Assembly (NCBI GenBank): GCA_041740855.1
Contig: JBGSLF010000195.1
Location: 11,384-75,383 of the forward strand
From: Gemmata sp.
GTDB taxonomy: Bacteria > Planctomycetota > Planctomycetia > Gemmatales > Gemmataceae
Direction: 5' to 3'
DNA length: 64,000 nucleotides
How positions within the stretch are numbered: the stretch's first letter is position 1; every line of letters starts with the position of its first letter. The notes under the pieces are model-generated. The model did no database searches, had not been told where the DNA came from, and was given only the letters and a program-made list of their open reading frames with translations. Positions 20,801-35,114 of this stretch are shown here, piece by piece. Made by a program: the position numbers and the translations under genes.

Positions 20801-20870
20801 CAACGTGCAATGCATGTATGCCCCGGAGTTCAACAGCCACTCCGAGAACATTAACCTCGAAGTGAAGTGA
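14820..20870 (+). CDS. alpha-2-macroglobulin family protein, 2016 aa, N-terminal membrane anchor, intact thioester
   Basis: N-terminal hydrophobic anchor (LIAFGVSTVCIAVGVTLMA). Thioester motif CSEQ at 19266-19277 (FPHECSEQTFNRL). Gly/Ala/Pro linker followed by RKNLNETAFFFPNLV, matching the post-bait R-x-x-F-x-ET motif of A2M proteins. Confidence 0.9.
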   Translation: MTLQKRLIAFGVSTVCIAVGVTLMARAFTNAQLPRDERWKKVAEANAKGLPRTAITELEPIIEGAIKDKDYPEAIKAIATKINLQGNIEGNKPEEKIIRMREAIAAAPPEMHAVLNAIHAHWYWHYFQQNRWRFMQRTQTGQSPGEDIQTWDLPRIFAEIGKTFEAALANEKELKATPIGTYSILLEKGTIPDKFRPTLFDFLAFEALSFYSSAEQAGARPQDSFDLKADSPIFDSVEKFLAWTPQTTDQGNRTIKAIKLFQQLLAFHKGDAESAAFLDADLHRLRFGWNKAVGEDKNARYKAALEAFAKANRDHELFAMAQYQLAGVLQAEGELVKARETALSALNAFPESPGGKLAFNLIQQIESKSASITTERVWNDPLPDIRVSYQNITKVYFRVIKSDYLDRLKTAQWRPEQLNENEAKMLLRQDPTQSFEHDLPATTDFKNRTESIPAPKGLKPGFYYILAGHDEQFSDTTPVSYTEIFVSDLAIVERRDHSSGVAAGQVMLASAGTPIEGAQVQTWIRQNNGGWATGGIGQTDKSGLYRIAVPMNRAHMAVVTHNDQLLATANDSYSGGRRGEPQAHEQVVFFTDRSLYRPGQTIQFKGILIRVDQAADNYAVVPNRAITVQFNDVNGKVIGKVEATSNDYGSISGSFIAPRDQLMGRMHINAMGLNGAASFNIEEYKRPKFRVEVEAPKDAFALNDTVKVPGKAMQYNGVPVGGAKVAFRVTREVRYPDWFFEYCWWRPIPRGPAQEIASGIVMTEVDGSFAIPFVARPDLSVNPKDEPAFRYSITADVTDTTGETRTGTRSVQVGYVALRATVTADAWLIVANDVKFDISTTTLDGEGQAAKGTLKVFALKQPAKPARPEVQGQVWWPRLKEDEVPKPDPAKPISWELGEEVFGTDFASNEKGQTNASTKLPAGIYRAVLETTDKFGKKVTTRHQFTVLDPAANAFNVKVPNHVAAPKWSVEPGEEFVLFWGSGYDTAQAFIEVEHKGQILKAWWTEPGKTQHIVKQQVTEAMRGGFTVRVTQVRENRAYLTSRQVEVPWSNKELSVKWERFVSKLEPGQKETYTAIVSGPKAERAIAEMVAGMYDLSLDAFLPHQWMERFSVFRHDHTWINLSFENVPRHFNHFKGQWPHTHKPVDLTYRGFPGDLTTNYIRYEYFGKGGGYTFGNQHWGLERGAMFDGVAMPDARHGGLANGMLAKGEAQGADGAPAAPPADAAAPGEGGGAGAPPATNPGPDLGSISPRKNLNETAFFFPNLVSNAEGEVRIEFTVPEALTKWKFMAFAHDQNLRSGFLRDEVITAKDLMAQPNPPRFLREGDVIEFTAKVSNQGKAGQKGSVKLALADTRTQKSLDTELSNTSATQEFDLPAGESKTFSWRLTVPDGTGPITYKVVAASERNSDGEEGILPVLSRYVLVQESLPLPIRNPGSRNFEFTRLRESAQSETIRHKSFTIQMVSQPAWYAVLALPYLMEFPHECSEQTFNRLYANALAHHIASSDPKIRKVFDQWKGTDALDSPLVKNQDLKSVLIEETPWVRQAVRESEARRNVGILFDENRLQFETTMLTQKLAQMQNPDGSWPWFPGGNGNDFITLYITTGYGRLRQLGVKIDTAAAVRSLNRLDDWADRQYQWAMKNKPDENHLNPSIALYLYCRSFFLADKAVDNIHREAIEYWLGQSRKHWLQLANRQSQAHLAVALKRFGDKETPTGIMKSIKERSKTDAELGMYWRDLELSYSWFRAPIETQAMMIEAFDEVMNDVQSVEDCKVWLLKMKQTTNWKTTKSTADAVYALLLRGDNLLKSDALVEVTVGNQLIQPEKIEAGTGFYERRFLGAEVQPALAAITVKKTDPGVSWGSAHWSYLEDISKVSRHEGTPLQLEKRLFKRTNAKAGPVINPVAEGEVLAVGDELVVRIVLRTDRDMEFIHLRDQRGSGTEPVNVLSRYKWQDGLGYYESTRDTASHFFIDYLPKGVYVFEYPVRVQHRGKYPTGYANVQCMYAPEFNSHSENINLEVK

Positions 20871-20934: not shown

Positions 20935-23688
20935 TCAGAAGCCCACAGACATTCGCTGTTGCTCCGACCGGCGGATGCGGCGAAACAAACCGAACGCTCC
21001 GACCGACACGACGCAGATTGCCAGCACTGATCCCGGTTCTGGAACCGGCGTGAAACCGTAGAGAACGATATCGTTCCCACCGGTCAACGAAATGTCATTG
21101 CCTGTCAGATTGCCTACATAACTCAACTTAAATGTCCCGGCTGGTGAGTTATTGCCAAACACTGCGTTAACAGTCCCATCTTGTGCGACCCCCGCGAACA
21201 TGCCGTCAATCTGGTTGGGAGTTTGGTTGTCCAGAATGGTAAATCGTTCGCTGGATGACGGGTCAAATCCAATCGCCAGGCCCACTGTCAGAACGGAACC
21301 CGTCACATCCACCGTCCCCGTACCGCGGACAGTCAACCGACTGTAGCTGTTTGGGCCACCAGCGGGGTCGAAGTTTGTTCCGTTCAGCAGGGCCAACACG
21401 TTCGACGAGGTACGGAGCGTAACCGGTGTGTTCACACCGTTAGTGCCGATCTGCAGATGTCCCGGTATGAACTCGCCATTGTCAAGGAACACGAACGCAC
21501 CTGGCATCGCGGTAAACCCGTTTCCACTCGAAGGCGCGATGATCCCGTTGCCACGGAGTGCATCGTTGATGATCACGCGGCCGGTTCCGGTCGCCGACCC
21601 TGTAGTGTTGCTGATCAACAGGACACCGGAGTCCACGGATGTGCCGCCCTGGTACGTGTTTGCTCCGGTCAGTTCCACCGCTCCGCCCCCGGAGAAGGAT
21701 AGCGACGAGTTGGGGCCGCCGGATATCACCTGTGTGAAACGAACGCGAGAAGCAATGCCCCGGGAGCTGGTTTGGGAGGATGGCCCCTGAAGCAGGAGTT
21801 GCCGAGTTTCGGGCGGATTCGCGGCCGACCCGTCGTCGAGGGCAAGAGCGTTCGCAAACGTGACAATGCCGGTCGAAGTGAAATAGCCGAACCGCAGGGC
21901 GGCCCCGGACCGGACGAAGTACTGGCTGTCGCCTGTCGTCCCGTTCCAGAGGAGTTGGTGCCCGTCCCCGCCGATGTTCACCGTAAGGTTCCCGTTGATC
22001 GCGGCGAATCCACCAGACCCGCGGTCCGCGACGTTCGGCGTGTTGATCCAGTTGACTTGCCCTGCACCAACCCCAAGTGATCGGGTGAAGGTACTCGTCC
22101 CGCCGCTGGCATCGACCTCCAGTATCCCGCCCCGGAACGCCACGGAATTGTTCAGCCCAAAGTTCAGTGTCGGACCGTCGATCCTTGCCCGGATCGCCCC
22201 CTGATTGATGACCACATAGTTGTTGATCGCCATCTGATCGGTGGTCCCCGTCAGTCGCAGTGTGCCGCCACCGGCCTTGACCACGGCCGCACCGGGCGCG
22301 AACGTTGCTCCCATGCTCAGCGTGGTGGTGTTGGTCCCGAGAACGAACACATTACGGACACTCGGCCCATTCCCCGCGACGATCCCGTTGGTGATGGCGA
22401 AGTCGAACACCGTCGACCCAGTTGTCGCCCGTTCCAGCATCAGCCCAGCGGTCGCGATCGTGTTCCCGTTGAGGTTGATCGAATACCCGTTGACGGGCGG
22501 TTCGAGCACCAGTGTCATCGGGCTGATGCTGTTGGTCAGAGTGGCGGTCGATGTGGAGGTCGGCTTGTAGATCACATTCGACCCCGGAAGGGCGGTCGAG
22601 AGGTTGGACTGGTTGAGTGTGGTCCCGAGTTGCGCAGTCACCTCGCCGGTGGCCGGGTTGATCGTGGCAAACCGCCCCCCGAAACTGACACCGGTGACAG
22701 ACCCCGTCAGGATGACGTATGGCGAGCCACCACCGTCGATAATCACTCCATTCTGGTTGGGGATGCCGAACGGCCCAGGTGCCAGGAACACCGAACCGAC
22801 CGCGCCGGTGAAGCCTGGAATCGCGCCACCGAAAGCGAACTCCAGGGTGCCAGACCCGCCACTAGGTGGGGTGCCCGTGAACCGGTCGATTCCCGACTGC
22901 AGAGTTGAGTTACCAAGGTTCAGGCGGGTGGTCGGGGTGATTCCAGAAGACCCGGCGAAGACACCCACGCTGGCGTGCCCGGACGCAGCAGCAATCTGGT
23001 TCAGGTTGAACACATCGTCGAGCCCATCCGCTCCCTGGAGGCTCAGATTGCCGCCACCCTGGAATCGAATCGCCCCTTGTGCGTTGTTGTTTACCCCAAG
23101 ACCGTTGGTGATGCGGGTGCCCGAACTCAGCGCAACCAGCGTCCCGCTGATCGTCAGGTTGTGGTTCGTCGTTCCGGCCGCGTCGATGAGGCGGAGTTCC
23201 GACCCATTCTGGAGGATGAATCGGGAATTGAACCCCGAAAAGTCCATTGCCCCGACGTTACTGGCGTAACTCCCTGCCGCATACGAGGTGCCAGTGGCGA
23301 TGTTCGTCCTCAGGTTATCCAGGGTGATGGTCGCCCCGAACGTGCCGCGAAAGGCGAAAGTCGGGTCGGTCATCACCCCGCCGGTGCCAAGAGTCAGGGT
23401 GTTCCCGTTCCCGAACATGGTGCCGACCGAGAGTCCACGCGGGCCAAGGATGCGGAACCGGCCGGCGGCCGCGTTGGCCGAGAAACTGGGAACGTTGTAC
23501 GTCGGCCCGTCGAACAGGCCGAGCACGGCCGTGGAGGCACTTGTCGGCACCCCATCGGGCGACCAACTACCGGACGTGTGCCAATCGGTCCCGCTGTAGT
23601 TCCACTGATAGGTTGTTTGGGCGGCAACGGGCTGAACAACACTCAACGAAGCTGCAAAAGCCACAGCGGAGCGGATGATGAGACGCAT
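20935..23688 (-). CDS. PEP-CTERM-anchored secreted protein with autotransporter-associated beta-strand repeats, 917 aa
   Basis: Signal peptide (MRLIIRSAVAFAASLSVVQPVAAQ). Repeats such as GGGAVELTGANTYQGGTSVDSGVLLISN and GGTLRLTGTTDQ. C-terminus VPEPGSVLAICVVSVGAFGLFRRIRR is a PEP-CTERM sorting signal. Confidence 0.85.
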   Translation of the reverse strand: MRLIIRSAVAFAASLSVVQPVAAQTTYQWNYSGTDWHTSGSWSPDGVPTSASTAVLGLFDGPTYNVPSFSANAAAGRFRILGPRGLSVGTMFGNGNTLTLGTGGVMTDPTFAFRGTFGATITLDNLRTNIATGTSYAAGSYASNVGAMDFSGFNSRFILQNGSELRLIDAAGTTNHNLTISGTLVALSSGTRITNGLGVNNNAQGAIRFQGGGNLSLQGADGLDDVFNLNQIAAASGHASVGVFAGSSGITPTTRLNLGNSTLQSGIDRFTGTPPSGGSGTLEFAFGGAIPGFTGAVGSVFLAPGPFGIPNQNGVIIDGGGSPYVILTGSVTGVSFGGRFATINPATGEVTAQLGTTLNQSNLSTALPGSNVIYKPTSTSTATLTNSISPMTLVLEPPVNGYSINLNGNTIATAGLMLERATTGSTVFDFAITNGIVAGNGPSVRNVFVLGTNTTTLSMGATFAPGAAVVKAGGGTLRLTGTTDQMAINNYVVINQGAIRARIDGPTLNFGLNNSVAFRGGILEVDASGGTSTFTRSLGVGAGQVNWINTPNVADRGSGGFAAINGNLTVNIGGDGHQLLWNGTTGDSQYFVRSGAALRFGYFTSTGIVTFANALALDDGSAANPPETRQLLLQGPSSQTSSRGIASRVRFTQVISGGPNSSLSFSGGGAVELTGANTYQGGTSVDSGVLLISNTTGSATGTGRVIINDALRGNGIIAPSSGNGFTAMPGAFVFLDNGEFIPGHLQIGTNGVNTPVTLRTSSNVLALLNGTNFDPAGGPNSYSRLTVRGTGTVDVTGSVLTVGLAIGFDPSSSERFTILDNQTPNQIDGMFAGVAQDGTVNAVFGNNSPAGTFKLSYVGNLTGNDISLTGGNDIVLYGFTPVPEPGSVLAICVVSVGAFGLFRRIRRSEQQRMSVGF

Positions 23689-23868: not shown

Positions 23869-25044
23869 TCATCCCTTCAGCATCTCGTCGTGCTTCATGC
23901 CGCTTGGGGGCAAGTCGGCTTTGTGGCAGTTGGCGAGTGCGGCTTTCGCTCCGGAGAGTTGGTCGGCGTCGTTATCTTCCCATTCGATGCTCACAGCCCC
24001 ATCGAAGCCAACTCGGTTCAACTCGATGAAGATATCTTCCAGGCTATTCGCGTCGCGAGCGGTGCCAGCGGTCACGAAGTTCCAGCCGTTGGTCCAGTGG
24101 CCCATCGGGCGATGCCCGCCCAACCGGCCCGCACGGCAGTGTTCGCGTGCCACCCAAACGCCCTTCACGTGGGCGCAGTGAATGAATTCCTTGAACTCGC
24201 GAATGAACTCGATCACCGACACGTTCTGCCATTCCATGTGCGAGCCATCGAGGTTGAAGCCAACCACGCCTTCATACCCCGCTTTGCACATGTGCGTGAT
24301 GTAATCGTTCGCGCTTTCGATGTCGCCCATCGCGCGTTCGCTCGGGTGGCATTCCAGGTCGAACGTGATGCCGTACTTCTTGCACTCATTCCACACGGGG
24401 CCGAACCGCTCGACGAGCAATTCCAGCGAAAGATCGCGCACATCGGGGAGCTTGTAGCCTTCAATCTCGGTGGGCAAGGGCGGAAACAGGAACCAGTGGC
24501 TCCAGCAATTCGCAGGGCTGCCGACAAACCCCGGCAACGCGACCTTGCGGCCTTGCAGTTTGCTGAGATGGCCGGCGTAACGCACGCAGGCGAGTAAGTC
24601 TTTCTGCGCCTCGGCGTGAACGAGCTTGGCCACTTCCGGCGGAACGAAGTAGGGGTCCGTTCGCGGCGGATTGTTGCCGGCCGCTCGCCAGGCTTTGTAC
24701 GCTGCCTTGGCGTCGCCCTTGCCGGAACAGAAGTTCAGCGTCTTGGCGCTGGGTTCATCGCCGAGCACTTGCCCCTGAAGGTGTGTCGCCACCGTGAAGA
24801 TTTCCATCCCGTGCTGCTTCGCCAGGTTCACGCGTTCGGCGGCGTACGACGCGGCTCCGCCGTCGGTGTCGCAGCGCCTCAGATCGAGTTCCCAGGAAGC
24901 TTCTTCCCAGCCATCGAACCCGGCATCCGCGATGAACTTGATCCACTTATCTTCGGGCACGTTGCCAAACTGCCCGCGAACAAGCCCAATCTGGTGAAAG
25001 CTAGCCTTGCCGTTTTTGTGCGTCTGAGTCTGTTTGAAACCCAC
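23869..25044 (-). CDS. sugar phosphate isomerase/epimerase (xylose-isomerase-like TIM barrel)
   Basis: Motifs are consistent with TIM-barrel family members (FDGWEEASWELD, ITFDLECHPSE, GFDGAVSIEWEDN). The ORF extends to 25215, but the first 57 codons are atypical. A GTG at 25044 with GGAGAC upstream is the likelier start. Confidence 0.7.
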   Translation of the reverse strand: MGFKQTQTHKNGKASFHQIGLVRGQFGNVPEDKWIKFIADAGFDGWEEASWELDLRRCDTDGGAASYAAERVNLAKQHGMEIFTVATHLQGQVLGDEPSAKTLNFCSGKGDAKAAYKAWRAAGNNPPRTDPYFVPPEVAKLVHAEAQKDLLACVRYAGHLSKLQGRKVALPGFVGSPANCWSHWFLFPPLPTEIEGYKLPDVRDLSLELLVERFGPVWNECKKYGITFDLECHPSERAMGDIESANDYITHMCKAGYEGVVGFNLDGSHMEWQNVSVIEFIREFKEFIHCAHVKGVWVAREHCRAGRLGGHRPMGHWTNGWNFVTAGTARDANSLEDIFIELNRVGFDGAVSIEWEDNDADQLSGAKAALANCHKADLPPSGMKHDEMLKG

Positions 25045-25213
25045 GGGAGAGTCTCCAGGGTAAGCGGGGTGAAGGCGAACGACCGGCCTCGACCGGCGTG
25101 TTTGCGAGATAAGGATTACCGCAGACTCTATCGGCGACCGAAACGGCGGGCAAGCGGTTGACGCAAGCCGCAGGTATGCGAAAATTGCCACTCCAACTCT
25201 AACCGAGGCGTTC

Positions 25214-25417
25214 ATGCGACTGGAAATTCACAAGGCCGGGGCCAAAACCGAAGACGTGACGATCGACATTAACGAAATCTTCCCGGACAAACCCGCGAAC
25301 CTCGTGGAAGTCTGTGAGACCGAAGCACGAGCACTCTACGACGTATTGAAAAGCACACTCCACCCTGAAACCAAAGCCGCTCTCGTGCGGATGATTGAAC
25401 GGAGTGGGCTGGAGTGA
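25214..25417 (+). CDS. hypothetical small protein, 67 aa
   Basis: ATG ORF with ordinary composition. Its stop overlaps the GTG start of the next gene (GTGA). Confidence 0.45.
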   Translation: MRLEIHKAGAKTEDVTIDINEIFPDKPANLVEVCETEARALYDVLKSTLHPETKAALVRMIERSGLE

Positions 25418-25857
25418 CAACGACGCCGAAGAATGCCCCGCTGCTGTTCCGAATGGTGCAGTTGAACGCTGCGATATTGCTATTCGCCGCACCCTTCGTG
25501 CTCATACCCTTCTCGCTGATGGATTCGGTCCATCGCGATTGGCTTGGGCTTGGCTCGCTGCCGGATGTTCCGATCACGCACTACATGGCACGTTCTCTTT
25601 CGCTGGTCTATGCCATGCACGGGGCGGTACTTCTGGCCGTTACTTGGAACTGGGAACGATTCTGGACCGCTGTCCCATTTCTGGCGTGTCTTCACATCGT
25701 TTTCGGTTTGTGCATGGTGGTTATCGATTGGGATGCTGGCATGCCGTGGTGGTGGACCGCTGCGGAAGGGCCGGGAATGATCGCGTATGCACTGCTGGTG
25801 CTGACAACCTATCGTCGGGCCGCACGGCGTATCGCGGCCCACACGCTACCGAAATAA
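25414..25857 (+). CDS. hypothetical membrane protein, 147 aa, 4 predicted TM helices
   Basis: Hydrophobic segments AAILLFAAPFVLIPF, LSLVYAMHGAVLLAV, AVPFLACLHIVFGLCMVVI and GMIAYALLVLTTY. The start overlaps the preceding stop. Confidence 0.6.
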   Translation: MTTTPKNAPLLFRMVQLNAAILLFAAPFVLIPFSLMDSVHRDWLGLGSLPDVPITHYMARSLSLVYAMHGAVLLAVTWNWERFWTAVPFLACLHIVFGLCMVVIDWDAGMPWWWTAAEGPGMIAYALLVLTTYRRAARRIAAHTLPK

Positions 25858-26266
25858 CCTGCTCGAAAACTCCGAACGCTGTCCGCTCTGACCCGCCAAA
25901 GCGATATATCGATGGTGGGAGTCCGTATTGGCGAACGGGTCCGTGCGAGCGCCCGCTCCCGTGTGAAGACGCAACACGTTAACTATTCGTATCTTCCGCA
26001 CGATCGCCCGAAAAAATCGCCGGTTTGGCACCGCACGGGGTAAGATGATCAACCGGCGGTAGGGAAGGGCATTCTTACACTTTTCATGTAACGCCCCTGC
26101 GATCAGGAAGGATCATCGCCGGGAAAATCGGGACAGAAGGAAGTTAAGCCATCCAACGCATTACCCTGGCAGGGATCGCGTTGCGTTGCTTGTAATATGC
26201 TCCCGGTTTACCGCCCAAGTTTGAACCGAAAGAGCCGTGCCACCGTTATGACCTGTACGGGTCAAC

Positions 26267-26296
26267 TTGTCTGGCAGGTCGGTGTAACGGTATGAT
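26267..26296 (+). promoter_or_regulatory. candidate sigma70-type promoter of the HlyD-paralogue cluster
   Basis: TTGTCT, 18-nt spacer, TATGAT, about 40 nt upstream of the GTG at 26337, which is preceded by GAGGAA. Confidence 0.3.
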
Positions 26297-26336
26297 CCCG
26301 TATTAGCGCCCCCGCGTCGCCCCGAGGAACCCGCCC

Positions 26337-28502
26337 GTGACTCCCACGCCACCTGGCCAAGTTGAAGACCGAAGCCGCTACAGTCGCCAGATTGAAGAGG
26401 CGTTCGAGGCGGCGGCCAGATTGGCCGGTTCCAACCTTGCGCCAGCCGAGTTTTACGAACAATTCCTGAACCGCGCGCTCACAGCGATCGATGCCCCTGC
26501 GGGGGCCATCTGGCTGCGAACGCCGCAGGGATTCCTCCAGGTTGCGTGCCAACTCAATCTGGAGAAGGTGGGGCTGGATTCGCGTCGCGGCGGGCGACAG
26601 TGCCACAATGAAATCTTGCGTCAGGTTTTCCAGGCGGCACCGCCGCGACCGGTCATGCTGGAACCGAACGCACGCCTGGGCGGCACCACCGGCGAACCCG
26701 GACCGGTGCCACCGGCGAATCTGACCGATCACTTCGCACTCTTCGCCCCGATCGTGACTCCGGACAAGCAACCACTGGGCGTGCTGGAAGTTTTCCAGGA
26801 TCCCAACCACGATCCGCGCATGTACCCGGCGTTCTTGAACTATGCGTTCCAGATGGCGGGCTATGCCAGTCAGTATCACCAATTCATCAACGCTCGCAGC
26901 GGATCGGGCACGGAACGCACCTTCACGCAGGTCGAATCGTTCGCGCGATTGGTTCATGGCACGTTGAACCCCACCGAGGTGGCGTACCACGTTGCGAATG
27001 AAGGAAGAAAACTGGTCGAATGCGATCGCATGTGCGTGGGCGTTCGCCATTCTCGCTACAAGGTGACGGTGGAAGCGGTAAGCGGGGCCGATGTGGTGGA
27101 GAAGGCCAGCACGCACGTTCGCCGGTTGCGCCACCTGATGGAATCGGTGCTGCACTGGGGCGAGCCATTGGTGTTCAAGGGCACCAAGGACGCAGGACTG
27201 CCGCCAGATGTTTCCGAAGCACTGGAAGATTACCTGCACGAGAGCCAGCCCAAGTTGCTCGTTGTGCAGCCGATCCGCGACGACCGAGAGAAGGACACCA
27301 CCAAGCCGGCACGCTCGGTGCTGGTGCTGGAGAGTTTCAACCCACCCGAGAACCCGGAACCGCTGATTCAGCGGCTGGAAGTGGTGGGCAAGCACGCGGC
27401 CCCGGCGTTGTATAACGCGGCCGAGATGAAACGTGTGCCACTCAAGCCACTCTGGTGGCCGCTGGCCAAGCTTCAGGAAGGCGTGGGCGGTAAGGCACGA
27501 TTCTTCGGCCTGCTTGGCCTGCTCGTGGCCACCGGACTCATCGCGGCCATGATCGCCGTCCCGTATCCGTTGCGGATGGAAGCAAAGGGGCAGATGCTGC
27601 CCGTGGAGATCGCCCAGATCTTCCCACCCCGAACCGGCGTGGTGCGCGAGATTCGCGCTCGCCCCGGCGATCAGATTTCCCCACGCTTCGAGGCCGTTTC
27701 GCTCTTCGATCCCGAACTGAATGCCAAGTATGGCGAGGCCCAGGAAAAGTTCCGCCAGTCGTCCACACAGGTGGCACTATTCAATCGCGTTCTCGATGAT
27801 CCGAACATGGATCCGAAGGAGAAAGTGAACTATCGCCAGCAACTCGTGATAGCCGAGAGTGATCGCGATGCATCGCGTGCGGTGATGGATTCGCTGGATA
27901 AGCAGTTCAACTGCGACCGCCAGAAGCCTGGGTATTTCCGGGCCATTGCTCCCAGCTTCGAGGCGAAACTCGCTCGGCCACTTGGCGTTTCACAATGGAC
28001 GGTTCTCAACGACGATCGCCAAGAGACTTTGCTCGGTAAAACGGTTCGCCCCGAACAAGAATTACTCCGGGTGGGGAACCTGCAAGGGCCATGGCAGATT
28101 GAATTGAAGATCCCGCAGCGGAACATCGGCCAGATTCTCAAGGCGTTTGGCGACCCAAGCCTGCACAAGGAAGAGCCGGAAACCGGCAAGAAATATCTGG
28201 ATGTGGATGTGCTTCTTTCGAGCCAACCCGACGCGAGCTATCTTGGCCGGTTATACCGCGATGGAATCTCCGCACAAGCCGTTCCGGGCAAGACCGATCA
28301 GGACGAGAACGAACCGGTCGTTACGGCGTATGTGAAGCTCAACCTCAACGACTTCCCCGAGCAATTAAAGATTCCCACAGACCAGTTCGTCACGGGTCTT
28401 GAAGTGCGTACCCGCATCCGGTGCGGCGAACACGCCATGGGCTATTCCATGTTCCATGGCGTTTGGGAATGGTTCTACGAGAAGGTCGTTTTCTTGTTCT
28501 GA
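26337..28502 (+). CDS. GAF-like sensor / single TM / HlyD-type membrane fusion protein, 721 aa
   Basis: GTG start with a GAGGAA RBS. Cytoplasmic region of about 385 aa with two GAF-like repeats (APAGAIWLRTPQGFLQVACQL; NEGRKLVECDRMCVGVR). TM helix FFGLLGLLVATGLIAAMIAV. Periplasmic lipoyl-hairpin, coiled-coil and barrel region ending in a HlyD-like tail. Confidence 0.8.
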   Translation: MTPTPPGQVEDRSRYSRQIEEAFEAAARLAGSNLAPAEFYEQFLNRALTAIDAPAGAIWLRTPQGFLQVACQLNLEKVGLDSRRGGRQCHNEILRQVFQAAPPRPVMLEPNARLGGTTGEPGPVPPANLTDHFALFAPIVTPDKQPLGVLEVFQDPNHDPRMYPAFLNYAFQMAGYASQYHQFINARSGSGTERTFTQVESFARLVHGTLNPTEVAYHVANEGRKLVECDRMCVGVRHSRYKVTVEAVSGADVVEKASTHVRRLRHLMESVLHWGEPLVFKGTKDAGLPPDVSEALEDYLHESQPKLLVVQPIRDDREKDTTKPARSVLVLESFNPPENPEPLIQRLEVVGKHAAPALYNAAEMKRVPLKPLWWPLAKLQEGVGGKARFFGLLGLLVATGLIAAMIAVPYPLRMEAKGQMLPVEIAQIFPPRTGVVREIRARPGDQISPRFEAVSLFDPELNAKYGEAQEKFRQSSTQVALFNRVLDDPNMDPKEKVNYRQQLVIAESDRDASRAVMDSLDKQFNCDRQKPGYFRAIAPSFEAKLARPLGVSQWTVLNDDRQETLLGKTVRPEQELLRVGNLQGPWQIELKIPQRNIGQILKAFGDPSLHKEEPETGKKYLDVDVLLSSQPDASYLGRLYRDGISAQAVPGKTDQDENEPVVTAYVKLNLNDFPEQLKIPTDQFVTGLEVRTRIRCGEHAMGYSMFHGVWEWFYEKVVFLF

Positions 28503-28681
28503 TTGTGGCGCGGGCGAGTGAAAAGTGGTGCGGAACGGATGCCCATTCCCGAGACGGCTCGTCTCGGGCCTCTTACCACTCGCCCATGCGATGCTAATCC
28601 GCCGCTTGGCCGAGCAATACCGCCTCGCACCCAACGGCAACCCCGACACAACCCCGCAACCGTCCCACGGAGGACCATGCC

Positions 28682-30862
28682 ATGCGAATGCGTTCCGGTT
28701 TCCTTTCCCTGCTCGCCGCGACTATCGGCACAGGATTAATTGGCTGTTATCGCCCCACCCTGCCTGAAGGTCAGGTGAAGGTTTCTTCGGGAACCAGTTC
28801 CGATGGGGCATTCAGTGCCACTTCACACATCCCAGACAATCCGAACGCAAATGTGGGTAACGGGCTGTTCCCACCGGCCGAGGCACCACCAACATTGCCG
28901 CCTCCGCGGATCAATTCGGAACCGATCATCATCCCGAATTGCACCGTGCAATACGAAGATCGCCAAACGGTTTCCGCAGAGGTTGACGGCAAGATCGATC
29001 TCATCGCAACGCAGATGAAAAAACGCCCCGATGGCATTTGGGAATACCGCCTGCCCGATGGCACGGTGGCGGCCACGCACGACCCCGCGAAGTTCGATCC
29101 GAAAAGCCCACACCCACGCATCGATTTCAACCCACGCGACAAGACCGCGTTCCGCGACACCCCCGCATCGTGGATCCCGTACTACAAGCTCCGCGAAGGC
29201 GATGTGGTGCTCGTCGATCAAGTGCTGTGCATGCTGGACGATTCCCTCGTGAGCACTCGCAAAGCTTCCGCTGCCAAGGTGAAGCTGGCTGCGTCCGAAG
29301 GGCAAGACGCCGCCCGCGAAGGTGTGCGACTCACCAAAGCAAAGATCGCGCTGTATGAGGGCAAGAATCTCGGCATCTCTCCACAAGATGTCTTGAACGA
29401 TCAGATCACCCTCACGCGTTTCGTCGAGAACCTGGCGCAATCGTTGCAGGCGATCGCCAAGGCCGAACAGGATTACGAAGAAGCCCAGGTCATGCTGGCC
29501 AAGCACTGGGTTCGCAGTCGTGTGAACGGCGTGATCCGGAACGTGGCGAAGCGGGATGGCGAATATGTGCGAGCCGGCGAAAAGATCTTCGAGGTGCAAT
29601 CCACGCAAACCGTGCGGCTCGAAGGGAACCTGGATGTCGGCTATTTCGATCAGGTGAAGCGCGACATGGCGGTGACCGTCGAGCGTGCGGTTCCCAGCGC
29701 GCCGGTGAAGTCGCACGCCTGGCATCGGCAGGAAATCGCCGCCGTCGCCGTGACCGGCCACTCGGAACGCCCCATGGTGGTGTCGGCCGGGATGGATGGC
29801 GTGGCGCTGGTGTGGGATCCCAATCTCAAAGGCGACAAGAACCGTTCCGCCACCCCGCATGCCTTGCCGCACCCGGTCGCCGTGCGATCGGTGGCTTGCA
29901 CTCCACCCGGAATCGACGTAGTTCTCGCCGTGACCGGTGCCGATGACGGGAAAGTGCGTGTCTGGGATCTGGCTAACCCAGATATGTTGCCCAACAAACC
30001 CGCACGCGAACCGGCCGACATTCACTCATCCGGTGTTGCCGCCGTCAGCATCAGCCCGGATGGAAAATTCGCCGTTACCGCAGCCGGGCGTGAAGTGTTC
30101 ATCTGGGATTTGGCAGCGGGCAAGAAGATGTACGCCCTGCCAGATGCGCACCGCGACAGCGTGACTTCGCTCTCGTTTTCTCCGCAGGCCGAGTTGGTGA
30201 CCGTCTCGAAGGATCGCACCCTGAAGCGATGGAAGCTCGGCAAGGAACAGGCCGCCGTGGCCCAGACCATCGATCACCGGTCCGGCGCGGTCGATATTCT
30301 CGGCGTTAGCCCCGATGGGAGCCGCGTGCTGTTCGACCAGGATAAATCGCGCATCGATCTGTTGAACCTGCAAGATGGCCGAACCGTCGGGCAGCTTACC
30401 AATGTCGGCCCAAGTGTGGCGTTCTCCACTCTGGCGCTGTTTTCCCACGATTTCGCGGAACCCAACACACCGCCCGAAAAATTCCCGCCTTACATGATCG
30501 TGACAGCGGGTGGCGATGGCGATTTGAAGGGCGGGCTGCAGGTGTGGCAAGCCCCGCGAGCAGGCGGACGCGGTGCGGAGGTTGCCCGACTCATCACGCC
30601 GGGCCGCGTGGCGGTGACCAGTGCCGCCTTTAGCCCGCACAAGAACGCACGCTTTCTGGTTGTTGGCACTGCCGCGGGAACCATTCATCTCTGGACGCCA
30701 CCCGAGGGGCCAGCACCGAAGATCGAAGGGCGAATTACCAACATCGACTCAACCGATCCTCGTTACGTCACAGTTCGTGTGGAGATGAATAACCGCGACG
30801 TGGGCTTGCTCGACCGCAGCGCCGCCACGGTTATCGTTAACCCCATCAGTAATGGCCAGTAA
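28682..30862 (+). CDS. lipoprotein: HlyD-type membrane fusion domain fused to a WD40 beta-propeller, 726 aa
   Basis: GGAGGA RBS 7 nt upstream. Lipobox LIGC. Lipoyl halves (VSAEVDGKIDLIA; RVNGVIRNVAKRDGEYVRAGEKIFEV) flank a coiled coil. About seven WD repeats follow (DGVALVWD, DGKVRVWD, REVFIWD, GTIHLWT). Confidence 0.85.
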   Translation: MRMRSGFLSLLAATIGTGLIGCYRPTLPEGQVKVSSGTSSDGAFSATSHIPDNPNANVGNGLFPPAEAPPTLPPPRINSEPIIIPNCTVQYEDRQTVSAEVDGKIDLIATQMKKRPDGIWEYRLPDGTVAATHDPAKFDPKSPHPRIDFNPRDKTAFRDTPASWIPYYKLREGDVVLVDQVLCMLDDSLVSTRKASAAKVKLAASEGQDAAREGVRLTKAKIALYEGKNLGISPQDVLNDQITLTRFVENLAQSLQAIAKAEQDYEEAQVMLAKHWVRSRVNGVIRNVAKRDGEYVRAGEKIFEVQSTQTVRLEGNLDVGYFDQVKRDMAVTVERAVPSAPVKSHAWHRQEIAAVAVTGHSERPMVVSAGMDGVALVWDPNLKGDKNRSATPHALPHPVAVRSVACTPPGIDVVLAVTGADDGKVRVWDLANPDMLPNKPAREPADIHSSGVAAVSISPDGKFAVTAAGREVFIWDLAAGKKMYALPDAHRDSVTSLSFSPQAELVTVSKDRTLKRWKLGKEQAAVAQTIDHRSGAVDILGVSPDGSRVLFDQDKSRIDLLNLQDGRTVGQLTNVGPSVAFSTLALFSHDFAEPNTPPEKFPPYMIVTAGGDGDLKGGLQVWQAPRAGGRGAEVARLITPGRVAVTSAAFSPHKNARFLVVGTAAGTIHLWTPPEGPAPKIEGRITNIDSTDPRYVTVRVEMNNRDVGLLDRSAATVIVNPISNGQ

Positions 30863-30972
30863 TTAGCCTGCGTGCGGTGGTGTGTGCGTCACATGAGCCT
30901 TCTGGCTTCTGTTAAGCGCAAACCACCGCAGGGCATTCTGTATCGACCACCCCTGATGCACTGGCCATTTCC

Positions 30973-33228
30973 ATGAACGCCGAAACCGAAAACCTCAACG
31001 ACCCGGCCGAGCGGCGCAAATCCGTCCGGCTGAAGGTGCGGCCCGATCTGCAGGTGTATGAGCAAAAGTACGAGGGGAAGACGTACCACGTTGTCAAAGA
31101 CCCCGTGTGCTTGCGTTACTACCGCTTTAACCGACAAGAATACTTTGTGTTCCGCCTGTTCGATGGAGAACACACGCTGGAACAAGTGCGCGATGAATTC
31201 GAGAACGAATACACGCCGCACCGATTGGAGTATCAGGATCTGGAAGTGTTCGCGCGCCAGTTGGTAACGGCTGGCCTCGTGCAGCACGAACAACAGGGTG
31301 CCGGCCGGCATTTGTATCAGCGCCGCGACAAACAGCGACGCACGAAGCGGCTAACGGCGATGACCAACATCCTCTACCTCAAGATCCCGGTGTTCGACCC
31401 GGACCGGATCTTGAACTGGATGTACAAATACACTGCGTGGATCTTCACCACCTGGTTCTTGTTTCTGAGCGTGGCGTTCATTTGCTCCGCCATCGTCCAT
31501 GTGCTGCTGCACTTCGATACCTTCTATGCCCGCTTGCCCGCATACCAGGAGTTCTTCACCTGGAACTCGGTGCTGTATATCTGGCTATCGCTTGGCGTGG
31601 TGAAGATTATCCACGAGTTCGGGCACGGGCTGAGTTGTAAGGCGTTTGGCGGCGAAAGCCATGAGATGGGGCTACTGCTGATGTGCCTCAGCCCTTGCTT
31701 GTATTGCAACGTGACGGACGCCTGGACACTCGCAGATAAGTGGAAGCGAATCATCATCAGCTTCGCCGGCATCTACGTTGAACTCATGATTGCCGCCGCG
31801 GCCACGTTCGTGTGGTGGTATACGCCGCAATACCCGGTGGTGAACAACATCGCGCTTTGCGTCATGGTGTTGTGCTCGGTCTCGACGGTGCTATTCAACG
31901 CCAACCCGCTCATGAAGTTCGATGGCTACTACATTTTGTCCGACTGGCTCGAAGTGCCCAATCTTCGAGAGAAGGCCAACAAGTTCGTAAACAATTTGTT
32001 CATATCGAAGGCACTGGGAATCGAAGTGCCGCCCGAGCCATATATGGCTCCGTGGCGAAAGTGGATGTTCGTCCTTTTCGCCGTTGCGAGTTGGGTGTAT
32101 CGCTGGGTGATCATGTTCAGCATCCTCTGGATGTTGTCCGACTTGCTCGGGCCACAACTCAAGATTCTTAGCCAGATGCTCGCGCTGGTTTGTCTGGCGT
32201 CGATATTTGTCTGGCCCACATACCGAGTCTTCAAGAACATTCGTCAACGAGGGCGGCTACCAGACATGAAAGCAACACGCGTCTATACCACGCTCGCAAT
32301 CGTTAGCGGGTTAACGGCTGCGTTCTTCTTCCTTCCGCTTCCGATTAGTCGAATCCGCGACACCGGGCTAATCGTGATCGACTACAGTTCCGTCGAGACG
32401 ATTGCCCTCGAAGAACCGGCTCGCTTGCTGGTGACCGAAGTGAAGCCCGGCCAGTTCGTCACCAAGGGGCAAGTGCTTGGCCGCTTCCGCAGCGACGATC
32501 TGGAGTTGGAACTCGATCGCGTGACCAAAGCCCGCGAGGGGCAGTTGCAAGCCGCGAAGCAGTACGAAGCCGCGATCTCGGCGGCGCGGGTGGAAGGCGA
32601 TGAACCTGCGGTGAAACGCTACACGCTCGAAGCGGAGTTTGCCCGCCATCGAGCGGATGCGGCACAGGAGCAACTGCTGGCGCTCACGGCTCGCTGGAAT
32701 GCGATTCGCGAACTCAAAGCGCCGCGCGATGGCGTGGTGGTTGCCGCTCCTTCACCCGACGACCGCGGCAAACTCTTTGATCGCGGCTATGTGGAAGCGG
32801 AACCGCTCTTTTCCGTGGGCGATCCAAACAAGCTCCTGATCCGCGTTCCGGTCTCCCCGCCCGACTACCGACTTCTGAAAGATGACCTGGCGGAGCTGAA
32901 AGAACTGGATGCCACCATTCTGGTAAAGGGTCGCAGCGATCGTCAATTCGCCGGAAAGGTCCGCAGGCTCCCGCCGCAGAATGCGAGCACTGTGCCCATC
33001 CAGTTGACTCAACGCGGCGGCGGGCCACTCGCGGTCAAGCCCGGCGGCGACCCCAACATCCTGCAACCGCTGGCCCAGGTCTATCTCATCGATGTGGAAG
33101 TTCTCGACCCCGACAAGGCGATTGATCCCGGCCAGCACGCCGTGGTGAAAATCCACACGAAGTGGCGAAGCGCCGCGTGGTGGCTTGGCCGCACCATTGC
33201 CAATGCCCTGGATGTCGGCCTCTATTGA
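30973..33228 (+). CDS. PqqD-like domain / M50 site-2-protease-like membrane domain / HlyD-type membrane fusion domain, 751 aa
   Basis: The N-terminal segment YYRFNRQEYFVFRLFDGEHTLEQVRDEF resembles PqqD-family domains. HEFGH at 31612-31626. Second S2P motif NANPLMKFDGYY. Multiple TM helices. C-terminal lipoyl/coiled-coil/barrel region ending KIHTKWRSAAWWLG (compare HlyD EIKTGMRSVISYLL). Confidence 0.85.
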   Translation: MNAETENLNDPAERRKSVRLKVRPDLQVYEQKYEGKTYHVVKDPVCLRYYRFNRQEYFVFRLFDGEHTLEQVRDEFENEYTPHRLEYQDLEVFARQLVTAGLVQHEQQGAGRHLYQRRDKQRRTKRLTAMTNILYLKIPVFDPDRILNWMYKYTAWIFTTWFLFLSVAFICSAIVHVLLHFDTFYARLPAYQEFFTWNSVLYIWLSLGVVKIIHEFGHGLSCKAFGGESHEMGLLLMCLSPCLYCNVTDAWTLADKWKRIIISFAGIYVELMIAAAATFVWWYTPQYPVVNNIALCVMVLCSVSTVLFNANPLMKFDGYYILSDWLEVPNLREKANKFVNNLFISKALGIEVPPEPYMAPWRKWMFVLFAVASWVYRWVIMFSILWMLSDLLGPQLKILSQMLALVCLASIFVWPTYRVFKNIRQRGRLPDMKATRVYTTLAIVSGLTAAFFFLPLPISRIRDTGLIVIDYSSVETIALEEPARLLVTEVKPGQFVTKGQVLGRFRSDDLELELDRVTKAREGQLQAAKQYEAAISAARVEGDEPAVKRYTLEAEFARHRADAAQEQLLALTARWNAIRELKAPRDGVVVAAPSPDDRGKLFDRGYVEAEPLFSVGDPNKLLIRVPVSPPDYRLLKDDLAELKELDATILVKGRSDRQFAGKVRRLPPQNASTVPIQLTQRGGGPLAVKPGGDPNILQPLAQVYLIDVEVLDPDKAIDPGQHAVVKIHTKWRSAAWWLGRTIANALDVGLY

Positions 33229-33264
33229 GCGCGAAGAGATTGCGATTGAGATTCTGTGATGACG

Positions 33265-33317
33265 GAGCCTGGAAGTCGGCGGATAATCACCGTCGCACTC
33301 CAGGCTCTTTCTTTTTC
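33265..33317 (+). terminator. intrinsic terminator closing the three-gene cluster
   Basis: Outer stem gagcctgga / tccaggctc enclosing an imperfect extended stem, followed by tttctttttc. Confidence 0.7.
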
Positions 33318-33335
33318 CTCACCCGAGGTATCGCC

Positions 33336-35114
33336 ATGCGTTACTTCCTGCCACTGTTCTTTCTGCTGCCGGCGGCATCGCTCGCCCAACAACCCAAGCA
33401 GCCGCAATCGGCCGCGCCTTTGCCGCGGGTGCTGTTCATGGGCGATTCCATTCGCCTGGGATACACCCCGGTTGCGACCAAGAAGTTAGATGGTATCGCC
33501 GAGGTGTTCAGCTTCCCTCAAAATGGTGGCGATACCAACGCAACACTCAAGCAACTGGAAGGCTGGTTGAAGGACGCGAAGCCGCCCTTCGACAAAGCGA
33601 GTTCCGAAACATCGCCGCTCATCGTGCACTTCAACTGCGGGCTGCACGACTTGAAGTTCATGAAGAAGACCAACGCCTTCCAGGTGCCGTTGGAGGAATA
33701 CGAAAAGAACCTCCGCACGATTGTGAAGTTATTGAAGGGACACACCCCGCACGTGATCTTCGCCAATACCACGCCCATCATCGATGAACGCCACGCCGGG
33801 CGGAAAGCGGACTTCGATCGTTTCGACAAAGACGTGAAGGCGTTCAACGAACGTGCGGTAAAGGTCATGCAAGAACTCGCCATCCCGGTGAACGACCTGA
33901 ACCGTATTGTTCACGATGGCGGTGCGGCGGAAATGCTTGGCAAGGACGGGACGCACTACACACCTGCCGGCAATGAGCGACTCGCGGCGGCTGTCGCGGA
34001 TGTGATAAAGCGGCAACTGCGATTGTTGCGGCCCACGGTGTTGAAGACTCCCGCGAAAGGTGCGGAGGCCGCGAAGGCGTATCAGGAAGCGGAAGCGGCG
34101 AACGACAAACTCGTGCCCGAACCGTTCAAGAAGATCAAGGTGCCGGAATTCTCGGTGCCAGCATCGAAGGACGACTGGGAGAAGCGGCGTGCCGATGTGA
34201 AAGCGAAAGTCGTGGCGTCGCTCGGCGATCTGCCACCGCGACCGGCGAAGCCAGCCGCACATCTGGTATCGGCCGAGATTCACCCAGGCTTCCGGCTCGA
34301 ACGCCTTCGCATCGATAACGGCGTGGATGGTGTCATGTCCGCGCTGATGCTCATCCCGGATGGCTTGAAAGCACCAGCACCCACAATCTTCTGGCTTCAC
34401 TCATCCAGCTACGATCACCACCACTTATTGCAGCCGAACTCCAATGGCGGCGAAGAACCGCTCGGCATCACGTTCGTCAAACGCGGCTGGGTGGTGTTCG
34501 CATCGGATGCGGCTTGGTATGGCGATCGCGCGGGGCAGGGGCCAGCGGGATTGCGTGAGTTAACGCGCGAACAGCAAGATAGCTTGCAGAAGTACCACCT
34601 CTGGTTTGGCCGCACGCTCTGGGGGATGTTCGTGCGCGACGATCAAGTCGCACTCGATTACCTCTGCACTCGGCCCGAGGTGAATACCGCGAAGATCGGC
34701 GCGACCGGCATCAGCATGGGCAGCACGCGAAGTTGGTGGTTGGCGGCGGTCGATGATCGCATTGCCGCCCTGGTGGGTGTGGCTTGCCTCACACGCTACG
34801 AGAATCTGCTGCACCACGGGCAACTACGGGCACACGGCCATTACTACTTCGTCAACGGTATCTTGAAACACTTCGATACCGAAGCGGTAATCTCGCTCAT
34901 CGCCCCGCGACCGCTGTTGTTCCTCACCGGCGATCTCGATGCTGGTAGCCCGGCCGATGGCATCAAGGTGATCGAGGCCAAGGTGGGAAGCCTGTACAAA
35001 GCGATTGGTGCGGAAGCCCAGTTCAAGAACATTCTGTATGAAGGTGTGGGGCACACTTACACGCCCGAGATGCGGAAGGAAATGCTCGCCTGGTTCGATC
35101 AGTGGTTGAAGTAA
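33336..35114 (+). CDS. secreted bifunctional hydrolase: SGNH/GDSL esterase domain fused to alpha/beta hydrolase domain
   Basis: Start at MRYFLPLFFLLPAASLAQQ (signal peptide). FMGDSIRLGY is the GDS block. The C-terminal half has GISMGSTRSW (GxSxG) and a terminal GVGHTY. The ORF extension back to 33162 was rejected. Confidence 0.8.
   Translation: MRYFLPLFFLLPAASLAQQPKQPQSAAPLPRVLFMGDSIRLGYTPVATKKLDGIAEVFSFPQNGGDTNATLKQLEGWLKDAKPPFDKASSETSPLIVHFNCGLHDLKFMKKTNAFQVPLEEYEKNLRTIVKLLKGHTPHVIFANTTPIIDERHAGRKADFDRFDKDVKAFNERAVKVMQELAIPVNDLNRIVHDGGAAEMLGKDGTHYTPAGNERLAAAVADVIKRQLRLLRPTVLKTPAKGAEAAKAYQEAEAANDKLVPEPFKKIKVPEFSVPASKDDWEKRRADVKAKVVASLGDLPPRPAKPAAHLVSAEIHPGFRLERLRIDNGVDGVMSALMLIPDGLKAPAPTIFWLHSSSYDHHHLLQPNSNGGEEPLGITFVKRGWVVFASDAAWYGDRAGQGPAGLRELTREQQDSLQKYHLWFGRTLWGMFVRDDQVALDYLCTRPEVNTAKIGATGISMGSTRSWWLAAVDDRIAALVGVACLTRYENLLHHGQLRAHGHYYFVNGILKHFDTEAVISLIAPRPLLFLTGDLDAGSPADGIKVIEAKVGSLYKAIGAEAQFKNILYEGVGHTYTPEMRKEMLAWFDQWLK

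Follow-up and report, generated by a model that had tools for sequence, protein, structure and literature searches.

Organization of the locus

Within a 64,000-nucleotide stretch of Gemmata sp. DNA (assembly GCA_041740855.1, contig JBGSLF010000195.1, positions 11,384 to 75,383 of the forward strand; hereafter the window, whose numbering is used for all coordinates without a locus prefix), three consecutive genes encode proteins that each carry a HlyD-type membrane-fusion protein (MFP) module: gene A (26337-28502, 721 amino acids, GTG start), gene B (28682-30862, 726 amino acids) and gene C (30973-33228, 751 amino acids). All three genes, and the features described within and around them, lie on the + strand. 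The open reading frame (ORF) coordinates give gaps of 179 nt between A and B and of 110 nt between B and C, exactly as claimed in an earlier description of this DNA made from the sequence alone (the original prediction). That description also assigned the HlyD type to all three proteins, which is borne out by Pfam, profile and structure matches, and held each MFP to be fused to a different module, namely a GAF-like sensor in A, a WD40 domain in the lipoprotein B, and a PqqD-like domain with an M50 protease in C. All of these modules are supported, as is the operon-like character of the unit.

Architecture of proteins A and C

The cytoplasmic part of A (26448-27431) comprises a first GAF domain (residues 38-156) and a GAF-2-like domain (residues 197-365), as judged from Pfam, from orthologues and from a structure model. 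The Pfam GAF match on residues 38-156 is marginal though above the gathering score (23.4 bits versus a cutoff of 22.4); orthologues of A from other orders (L053, L017 and L040; L numbers denote the loci compared) contain two significant GAF domains, with E values of 2e-10 to 7e-11. In the model, an alpha/beta domain spans residues 197-365 at a predicted local distance difference test score (pLDDT) of ~80-90, and residues 1-196 are poorly modelled. There follow a single predicted transmembrane (TM) helix (residues 387-408, 27495-27560; hydropathy peak 2.44, helix 387-407 in the model) and a periplasmic MFP module (27561-28499) with both lipoyl halves, an alpha-hairpin at residues 459-524 and a beta-barrel, recognized by profile, Foldseek and hhalign comparisons. 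A profile of A matched MacA, ZneB and MexA in the PDB at E about 1e-4, and the C-terminal half of the model retrieved AcrA, MexA and MacA in Foldseek at E 1e-11. The search for homologues of A returned 983 proteins, of which the best 120 are 64-79% identical to the query and come from Gemmataceae wherever the source is named.

Protein C was modelled with a pLDDT of 88.9 and a predicted template modelling score (pTM) of 0.75. It begins with a predicted cytoplasmic domain (residues 19-105, 31027-31287) resembling PqqD and the recognition elements (RRE) of pathways that yield ribosomally synthesized peptides with post-translational modifications (RiPPs). The Pfam PqqD match is weak (E 0.005, below the cutoff); the model of this region consists of four strands and three helices, a pattern that would suit the winged helix of an RRE, and the region overlaps the NF041824 match described below. 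In an alignment (A2) of 41 distant homologues of C (29-47% identity), residues R23, K42 and P44 of this domain are invariant. Next comes an M50 intramembrane protease domain (31402-32331), identified by Pfam Peptidase_M50 (PF02163; 33.5 bits versus a cutoff of 27.2), by hydropathy and by the model, with seven TM helices. Its zinc-binding and catalytic motif HEFGH (residues 214-218, 31612-31626) is invariant at H214, E215 and H218 in alignment A2, and the motif NPLMKFDGY (residues 311-319, 31903-31929) is invariant at N311, P312, D317 and Y319. D317 is the probable third zinc ligand, on the assumption that it corresponds to the aspartate of the S2P motif NxxPxxxLDG. Lysine and arginine abound in the loop that precedes TM1 and in the one joining TM6 to TM7, and both loops are thus placed on the cytoplasmic side, which sets the N-terminus of C in the cytoplasm and its C-terminus in the periplasm and therefore turns the predicted active site toward the cytoplasm. 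The C-terminal part is again a periplasmic MFP module (residues 460-747, 32350-33213; alpha-hairpin at 508-577). Foldseek matched it to MacA (best, E 1e-13), ZneB and MexA at E 1e-13 to 1e-12, and Pfam HlyD_3 recognized it at E 2.7e-5. A sequence search of C against the PDB gave no informative match.

The original prediction had connected C with RiPP-type M50 proteases, and this connection has gained in substance: residues 43-421 match the NCBIfam model NF041824, the RRE-M50 leader peptidase of daptides, over its full length (E 2.7e-55), with a score of 188 bits where the curated cutoff is 300, and neither a precursor gene nor MpaB/C/D/M genes were found nearby. On this evidence C is a homologue of the daptide protease family and not a member of it. 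The family includes MpaP, an RRE-dependent intramembrane protein proposed to be the leader peptidase of daptides (bioRxiv 10.1101/2023.03.08.531785). MpaP thereby offers a functional analogue for the N-terminal half of C, one that was not available in 2015, when the module discussed below was first described. Weak matches to NHLM_micro_HlyD and DarC-type adaptors were also seen. A HMMER search with C reached 12,044 representative clusters (50% identity) at a threshold of E ≤ 1e-3, of which 4,051 remained at E ≤ 1e-30, and most of the 150 homologues listed are ~730-760 amino acids long.

The three proteins had been called paralogues. This is right only in a distant sense, since the homology of A and C is confined to the profile level: residues 386-707 of A align with residues 434-740 of C at 98.7% probability in hhalign, over a stretch that begins at the TM anchor and takes in the C-terminal tail, and BLASTP of A, B and C against one another finds no significant similarity. 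The R-S-x-x-x-aromatic tail ascribed to both A and C is present in C (RSAAWW), and A has HAMGY instead. With their homologous TM-plus-MFP modules and hairpins similar in length, A and C appear compatible with co-assembly.

Conservation in Planctomycetota and the WD40 insertion in B

Scanning one genome per species with C yielded at least 592 confirmed matches. The best 80 of these are nearly all from Planctomycetota (Gemmataceae, Isosphaeraceae, Pirellulales, Thermoguttaceae and Planctomycetales) and, together with Frigoriglobus, make up the set of 81 loci analysed here. At least 3.6 kb of sequence is available upstream of C in 63 of them, and 53 of these 63 have an orthologue of A upstream of C on the same strand. 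Outside the loci whose B carries WD40 (see below), the middle gene encodes a plain MFP of ~300-350 amino acids, sometimes duplicated or longer; at five loci A directly abuts C. The order A-(B)-C is kept across Gemmataceae, Isosphaeraceae, Pirellulales, Thermoguttaceae and Planctomycetales.

Nine loci (L048, L052, L062, L065, L068, L070, L073, L076 and L079) contain a C-like gene and no A orthologue anywhere in the locus sequence, and several of them keep a plain MFP gene directly upstream of the C-like gene. These loci may represent paralogous systems of different make-up. At L069 an A orthologue is present in divergent orientation.

Gene B is orthologous to the plain ~310-residue MFP of other loci, with an addition. 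Pfam recognizes HlyD_3 (E 1.8e-8) and HlyD_D23 in B, and WD40 (PF00400) at E 1.2e-21 with four repeat matches over ~324 residues. A hidden Markov model (HMM) built from 23 plain ~310-residue middle genes of other loci matches residues 78-109, 170-342 and 667-707 of the window protein, and thus defines an N-terminal MFP portion (residues 78-342, 28913-29707), a WD40 beta-propeller (residues 343-666, 29708-30679) lying between the two parts of the beta-barrel match, and C-terminal strands that complete the barrel (residues 667-726, 30680-30859; model positions 245-287 on residues 667-707). The C-terminal piece is weak in the window protein (iE 0.34) and significant in L005, L009 and L049 (iE about 1e-9). 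Because the matches flank the WD40 region, the propeller is an insertion within the MFP beta-barrel domain rather than a terminal fusion. WD40-bearing versions of B occur in 15 of the 81 loci, all Gemmataceae-like, and the window protein is 50% identical to its Frigoriglobus orthologue. The N-terminus of B (28682-28747) has the features of a lipoprotein signal peptide with the lipobox LIGC (residues 19-22, Cys22). A lipobox-like motif is found in eight of 14 long B sequences, the window included, among them those of the close relatives L001, L004 and L013; the short orthologues have ordinary signal peptides. The propeller is best regarded as a lineage-specific insertion in a plain periplasmic MFP, a peripheral addition. 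The role of outer docking platform that had been proposed for the WD40 lipoprotein finds no support here, as most of the phylum has a B without WD40 and the propeller consequently cannot be a core docking element.

A truncated SecA-like ATPase as candidate motor

HlyD-type MFPs function in tripartite systems such as HlyBD-TolC, MacAB-TolC and AcrAB-TolC, whose lipoyl, alpha-hairpin and beta-barrel fold is shared by A, B and C. A pump or a TolC-like channel had been reported missing from the window, and this holds for every ORF examined by motif and HMM scans. No ORF of at least 150 amino acids contains a Walker A or ATP-binding cassette (ABC) signature motif, no SecA-like sequence was matched in the 64 kb, and no transporter or channel was found among 20 of the larger other ORFs, all four of at least 900 amino acids included, some smaller ORFs lying outside the HMM scan. 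The original prediction had also reckoned with orthologous clusters in which an ABC transporter and a TolC gene, merely displaced here, would always be present. Pfam analysis of 123 flanking ORFs from 80 loci showed no recurrence of ABC_tran, OEP or resistance-nodulation-division (RND) families, and a weak OEP match ~9 kb from the module was seen in L001 only. What appears to be displaced is a SecA-like ATPase, not an ABC transporter.

SecA_DEAD is the sole recurrent family among the 123 neighbouring ORFs, with nine members versus at most three for any unrelated family, and a SecA-like gene adjoins the module in 12 of the 81 loci. The encoded proteins (626-749 amino acids, ~670) comprise SecA_DEAD, SecA_PP_bind and P-loop_SecA without the wing/scaffold domain (SecA_SW). 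Their Walker A (GEGKT) and DEAD motifs are intact, and they score 470-625 bits against SecA2 models, below all SecA/SecA2 family cutoffs. In the Pirellulales-type arrangement the gene lies upstream of A; two loci of Gemmataceae and one of Mariniblastus have it downstream of C. That the gene stands on either flank of the module, and does so in different orders, speaks for a functional connection more than for synteny by descent. Within Gemmataceae the short SecA shows 69-82% conservation, and in the complete genome of Limnoglobus roseus it is unlinked and has an unrelated neighbourhood; an unlinked arrangement like that of the window thus exists in this family. Since the ATPase stands beside the module in relatives, a displaced motor is likelier than no motor, and the pump that seemed to be missing is probably a motor whose gene lies elsewhere in the Gemmata sp. 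genome.

The SecA-like proteins end in a conserved acidic tail; Pirellulales have MGQDPYLD, Gemmataceae LGADPYVD and others MGLDPILD (genes with this tail include L002:12387-14582, L053:4496-6514, L034:4180-6426 and L082:10001-12064). One may speculate that this tail, G-x-D-P-Y-(L/V)-D, docks to the RRE-like domain of C in place of a substrate leader. In Limnoglobus roseus the SecA-like gene has an 11-nt overlap with one that encodes a 504-residue polytopic membrane protein without Pfam match (L082:12054-13568). This protein was considered as a partner and rejected: it was not found in L001-L081, and the window contains only a weak match of 54 amino acids.

Relation to a previously described module and to known systems

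An association of these protein types has been noticed before. In a comparative genomic study, Kamneva, Poudel and Ward (PLoS One 2015; PMC4452313) described "secondary SecA_DEAD" proteins encoded with peptidase_M50/HlyD, HlyD/biotin_lipoyl and GAF/HlyD proteins, an association that they found in several phyla, Planctomycetota included, and exemplified by the Methylobacterium extorquens AM1 operon META1p2402-2399. They proposed that SecA_DEAD contributes the ATPase activity and the M50 protein the membrane-spanning part, observed OEP genes in some loci, noted that partner genes can sit elsewhere in the genome, and called the biological role of the module "completely unknown" (PMC4452313). The correspondence with the window is close, A combining GAF with HlyD/biotin_lipoyl, B being a separate HlyD/Biotin_lipoyl protein and C combining Peptidase_M50 with HlyD and TM helices, and by its domain composition the triad very probably belongs to this module. 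It differs in that its SecA_DEAD gene is neither adjacent nor within the 64 kb, and in the WD40 propeller inside the beta-barrel domain of B. WD40 is not mentioned in the text of PMC4452313 and a term search of its supplements did not find it; nor were the RRE-like domain of C or two small linked genes of relatives, DUF3467 and S2 (see below), found in that text or by term search of the supplements. Our literature searches retrieved no later papers or experiments on the module since 2015. The novelty entertained in the original prediction therefore cannot be upheld for the module, already described by comparative genomics in 2015; no experimental characterization of it, as a secretion or RiPP system or otherwise, was found. 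The triad of the window is a Gemmataceae variant of a previously noticed module, neither categorically new nor ordinary, and what the window adds of its own is the WD40 insertion in the middle adaptor and a motor gene that is not linked.

Unlike tripartite type I secretion and efflux systems, the module has no linked ABC, RND or major facilitator superfamily pump and no linked TolC, either in the window or among recurrent neighbours, and it contains three distinct MFPs, with cytoplasmic or intramembrane modules fused to two of them. A precedent for distinct MFP paralogues in one adaptor ring is TriABC-OpmH of Pseudomonas aeruginosa, whose RND pump needs two different plain MFPs; the triad differs from it in its third MFP, in the lack of an RND pump and in the GAF, WD40 and M50 modules fused to its MFPs, and its co-assembly is putative. 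With the peptidases of the MpaP (NF041824) and YydH/LiaK (NF058609) types, C shares an N-terminal RRE/PqqD-like domain followed by a multi-pass HExxH protease. C has in addition an extra TM helix and a C-terminal MFP of ~290 residues, and in contrast to the sporadic clusters of those peptidases the triad is phylum-wide and has no precursor or modification genes nearby. Finally, the linked ATPase of related loci is a SecA paralogue, as is the accessory SecA2 of Gram-positive bacteria and mycobacteria. It differs from SecA2 in lacking the wing/scaffold domain, in scoring below the family cutoffs, in having MFPs and an M50 protease as partners and not SecY2/Asp proteins, and in its absence from the window.

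Proposed mode of action and alternatives

In the predicted topology, A (one TM helix) and C (seven) are anchored in the inner membrane. Both have a cytoplasmic portion, namely the tandem GAF domains in A and the RRE-like domain in C, and the M50 active site is turned toward the cytoplasm. All three MFP modules are predicted to be periplasmic, B being exported as a putative lipoprotein. Our best reading of this arrangement is an export and processing machine that resembles type I secretion, with its motor encoded elsewhere and its exit through an unlinked TolC-like channel, and we consider the chances for and against it to be evenly balanced. The three MFP modules would co-assemble into one heteromeric periplasmic tube, comparable to TriA and TriB in TriABC. 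The RRE-like domain of C would capture a leader-bearing polypeptide, which the M50 domain would cleave at the cytoplasmic face, and the product would move outward through the tube to the channel. The energy would come from the truncated SecA-like ATPase, with its gene outside the window; this protein is predicted to retain both nucleotide-binding domains of SecA along with its preprotein cross-linking domain, but not the regions that contact SecY. Gating of the machine, or its coupling to the motor, may fall to the GAF domains of A, and the propeller of B would be a peripheral feature of the lineage. A stronger version is possible, though on balance doubtful, namely that the module and the unlinked short SecA constitute a distinct trans-envelope secretion system in which a SecA-derived ATPase feeds an RRE-gated M50 protease ringed by three adaptors. 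If export driven by a SecA paralogue is true, diderm bacteria would possess a secretion route that combines a Sec motor, a type I adaptor and a RiPP-type leader peptidase, in a module very widespread throughout Planctomycetota. The value of the present analysis lies in a sharper, testable model, with residues to mutate, a partner gene to seek and small linked candidates.

Several observations weigh against the export machine. M50 domains are proteases that to our knowledge do not serve as conduits. Neither the window nor 69 of the 81 loci contain the SecA-like gene, no outer-membrane channel is linked to the module, the small ORFs clustered around it include no precursor-like gene, and both DUF3467 and S2 are absent from the window. 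C remains below the NCBIfam cutoffs for the daptide protease (188 versus 300 bits) and for the epipeptide protease (51 versus 225 bits). A and C are very highly conserved (about 66% between genera), which suits a housekeeping function at least as much as the export of a specialised peptide. Moreover, because strong hairpins occupy both internal gaps (see below), a single uninterrupted transcript of A, B and C is not certain.

We weighed four other explanations, each of which fits fewer observations than the export machine. The first is signalling by regulated intramembrane proteolysis, in which a GAF-controlled M50 protease would cleave a membrane-anchored regulator and the MFPs would act as periplasmic scaffolds or sensors without any export. 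M50/S2P enzymes classically act in signalling, RseP and SpoIVFB being examples, and the conserved catalytic motifs of C, the cytoplasmic position of the GAF domains and the lack of a linked channel or substrate gene would all suit such a role. We nevertheless hold it to be unlikely. Without a conduit, it is difficult to see why three full MFP modules with alpha-hairpins should be maintained phylum-wide; the nearest counterparts of the N-terminal half of C are leader peptidases from pathways of peptide export; the linkage to a SecA-type preprotein ATPase points to the handling of polypeptides; and the neighbours show no recurrent sigma or anti-sigma gene.

The model favoured in the original prediction was a self-contained envelope apparatus without a motor, in which the M50-MFP would take the place of the pump, the WD40-MFP would dock at the outer membrane and the GAF-MFP would sense a cytoplasmic ligand. 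It accords with the joint encoding of A, B and C and with the lack of an ATPase or channel gene in the window and in most orthologous loci. It is not supported, however, by the truncated SecA-like ATPase that adjoins the module in relatives, on either side in different orders and, according to PMC4452313, in other phyla as well, nor by the lack of WD40 in the B of most of the phylum. Taken together, these findings leave a motor-less apparatus quite unlikely. It would also require unpowered movement through an MFP tube, and we know of no precedent for such transit without an energy source.

Homology between the leader peptidases of daptides and epipeptides and the RRE-M50 half of C invites a third explanation, that of a machinery dedicated to the maturation and export of a RiPP or bacteriocin whose precursor and modifying enzymes would have their genes in another part of the genome. 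Bacteriocin exporters typically have MFP partners, and the weak adaptor matches mentioned above (NHLM_micro_HlyD and DarC-type) go in the same direction. Yet no precursor, modifying enzyme or ABC/peptidase exporter is found near any of the 81 loci, C falls short of the family cutoffs, and the module behaves as a phylum-wide, strongly conserved core locus, unlike the patchy clusters of RiPP pathways, so that a dedicated RiPP or bacteriocin system is very unlikely. Least probable of all, and in our view highly improbable, is a structural or tethering complex in which the inner membrane would be joined to peptidoglycan or the outer membrane by the ring of MFPs together with the WD40 propeller, with the protease in a quality-control role: WD40 propellers are indeed protein-interaction platforms, and the high conservation, the housekeeping-like and unrelated gene context and the lack of a nearby substrate gene would agree with it, but there is no sign of any tether partner, the propeller is lineage-specific, and both the RRE-like domain and the SecA linkage are left unexplained.

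Small genes linked to the module in relatives

All ORFs of 25-160 amino acids within 2.5 kb of the modules were clustered. An adjacent RiPP precursor was rejected, as the clustering gave only DUF3467, a family that we call S2, and antisense artefacts. DUF3467 and S2 are not homologous to each other and are candidates for accessory factors or substrates. DUF3467 has a core of ~85 residues that is 55-92% identical between loci, far more conserved than the module proteins. It is carried by 18 non-Gemmataceae loci (L020:6764-7132, L023:12243-12605, L053:12403-12735, L054:12212-12586, L042:6609-6854 and 13 others), in most of which the gene stands directly after C or before A. We found no solved structure of a relative and no paper on the function of DUF3467. 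The S2 proteins are 110-135 residues long, look cytoplasmic, belong to no Pfam family and share the motifs LTRGLGD.EAR and QLAA.ERF.WPLP. Their genes lie directly upstream of A in 11 Gemmataceae-type loci (L001:4692-5099, L002:4722-5099, L004:1042-1392, L013:4480-4881 and others). In L084 the S2 position is occupied by a gene of corresponding size (118 amino acids, 4819-5175), and no gene is called in this position in the three closest relatives of the window. An anti-phage defence system was also considered and set aside, since PADLOC matched neither the three proteins A, B and C nor DUF3467, S2 or the SecA-like ATPase.

Probable transcription signals

The promoter-like sequence noted upstream of A is present at 26267-26296, with a -35 element TTGTCT, an 18-nt spacer and a -10 element TATGAT. 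Taken on its own the sequence gives no reason to single it out, for a motif scan found three sites where 2.4 are expected by chance; its conservation in relatives is another matter. The upstream DNA was aligned with that of L083, L085 and L086, three relatives that share 76-80% identity with the window in their A or C proteins. In all three relatives both hexamers and their spacing are kept and the flanking DNA has diverged, and a series of conserved elements stands at fixed spacing upstream of A: GAACTTGTC, GTAT(G/C)AT, a GAGGA ribosome-binding site and the GTG start. The conservation of these elements amid diverged sequence led us to accept the promoter and the start codon, both of which are likely to be real. 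No convincing small ORF was seen upstream of A, and Rfam gave no match in 25000-34000.

The terminator-like hairpin with U-tract placed downstream of the triad was confirmed by folding. The element (33264-33319) consists of a hairpin and then UUUCUUUUU; the hairpin itself (33264-33308) has a folding energy of -31.5 kcal/mol (z -4.95), with TTTCTTTTT directly after it. A pattern scanner failed to pick it up because the hairpin loop is long. Hairpins of comparable strength lie 3' of C in L083, L085 and L086. The terminator-like region of L086 (12884-13030) contains ~7 tandem GTGCTTC heptamers inside a very stable hairpin (-68.8 kcal/mol).

Both internal gaps fold strongly as well. The A-B intergenic region (28503-28681) has a minimum free energy (MFE) of -62.6 kcal/mol (z -3.0, for 28503-28650) and contains a perfect GC-rich stem formed by CCCGAGACG and CGTCTCGGG, and the B-C region (30863-30972) has an MFE of -47.7 kcal/mol (z -4.49). 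These hairpins could be attenuators, RNA-stability elements or repeat elements. In M. extorquens, an internal terminator has been inferred after the GAF gene (PMC4452313).

Neighbouring genes

The other genes of the window are unrelated to the triad and include those for a xylose-isomerase-like protein, an ion channel, a fumarase and a glutamine synthetase. A gene for a 147-residue membrane protein upstream of A (25414-25857) was discarded as a member of the unit, not being conserved in Frigoriglobus or in the closest relatives. Downstream, an ORF for a 650-residue GDSL/abhydrolase protein (33162-35114) overlaps the 3' end of C as listed; its true start is probably the ATG at 33336, which yields the signal-peptide-like N-terminus MRYFLPLFFLL. 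This gene and the next one, encoding a HhH-GPD (glycosylase) protein, keep their positions in L086. Further upstream of the triad are genes for a 968-residue protein with an M48 peptidase domain (9534-12440, + strand), a 2016-residue bacterial alpha-2-macroglobulin with MG2, A2M and bMG10 domains (14820-20870, + strand) and, on the - strand, a 917-residue protein with a PATR repeat (20935-23688).

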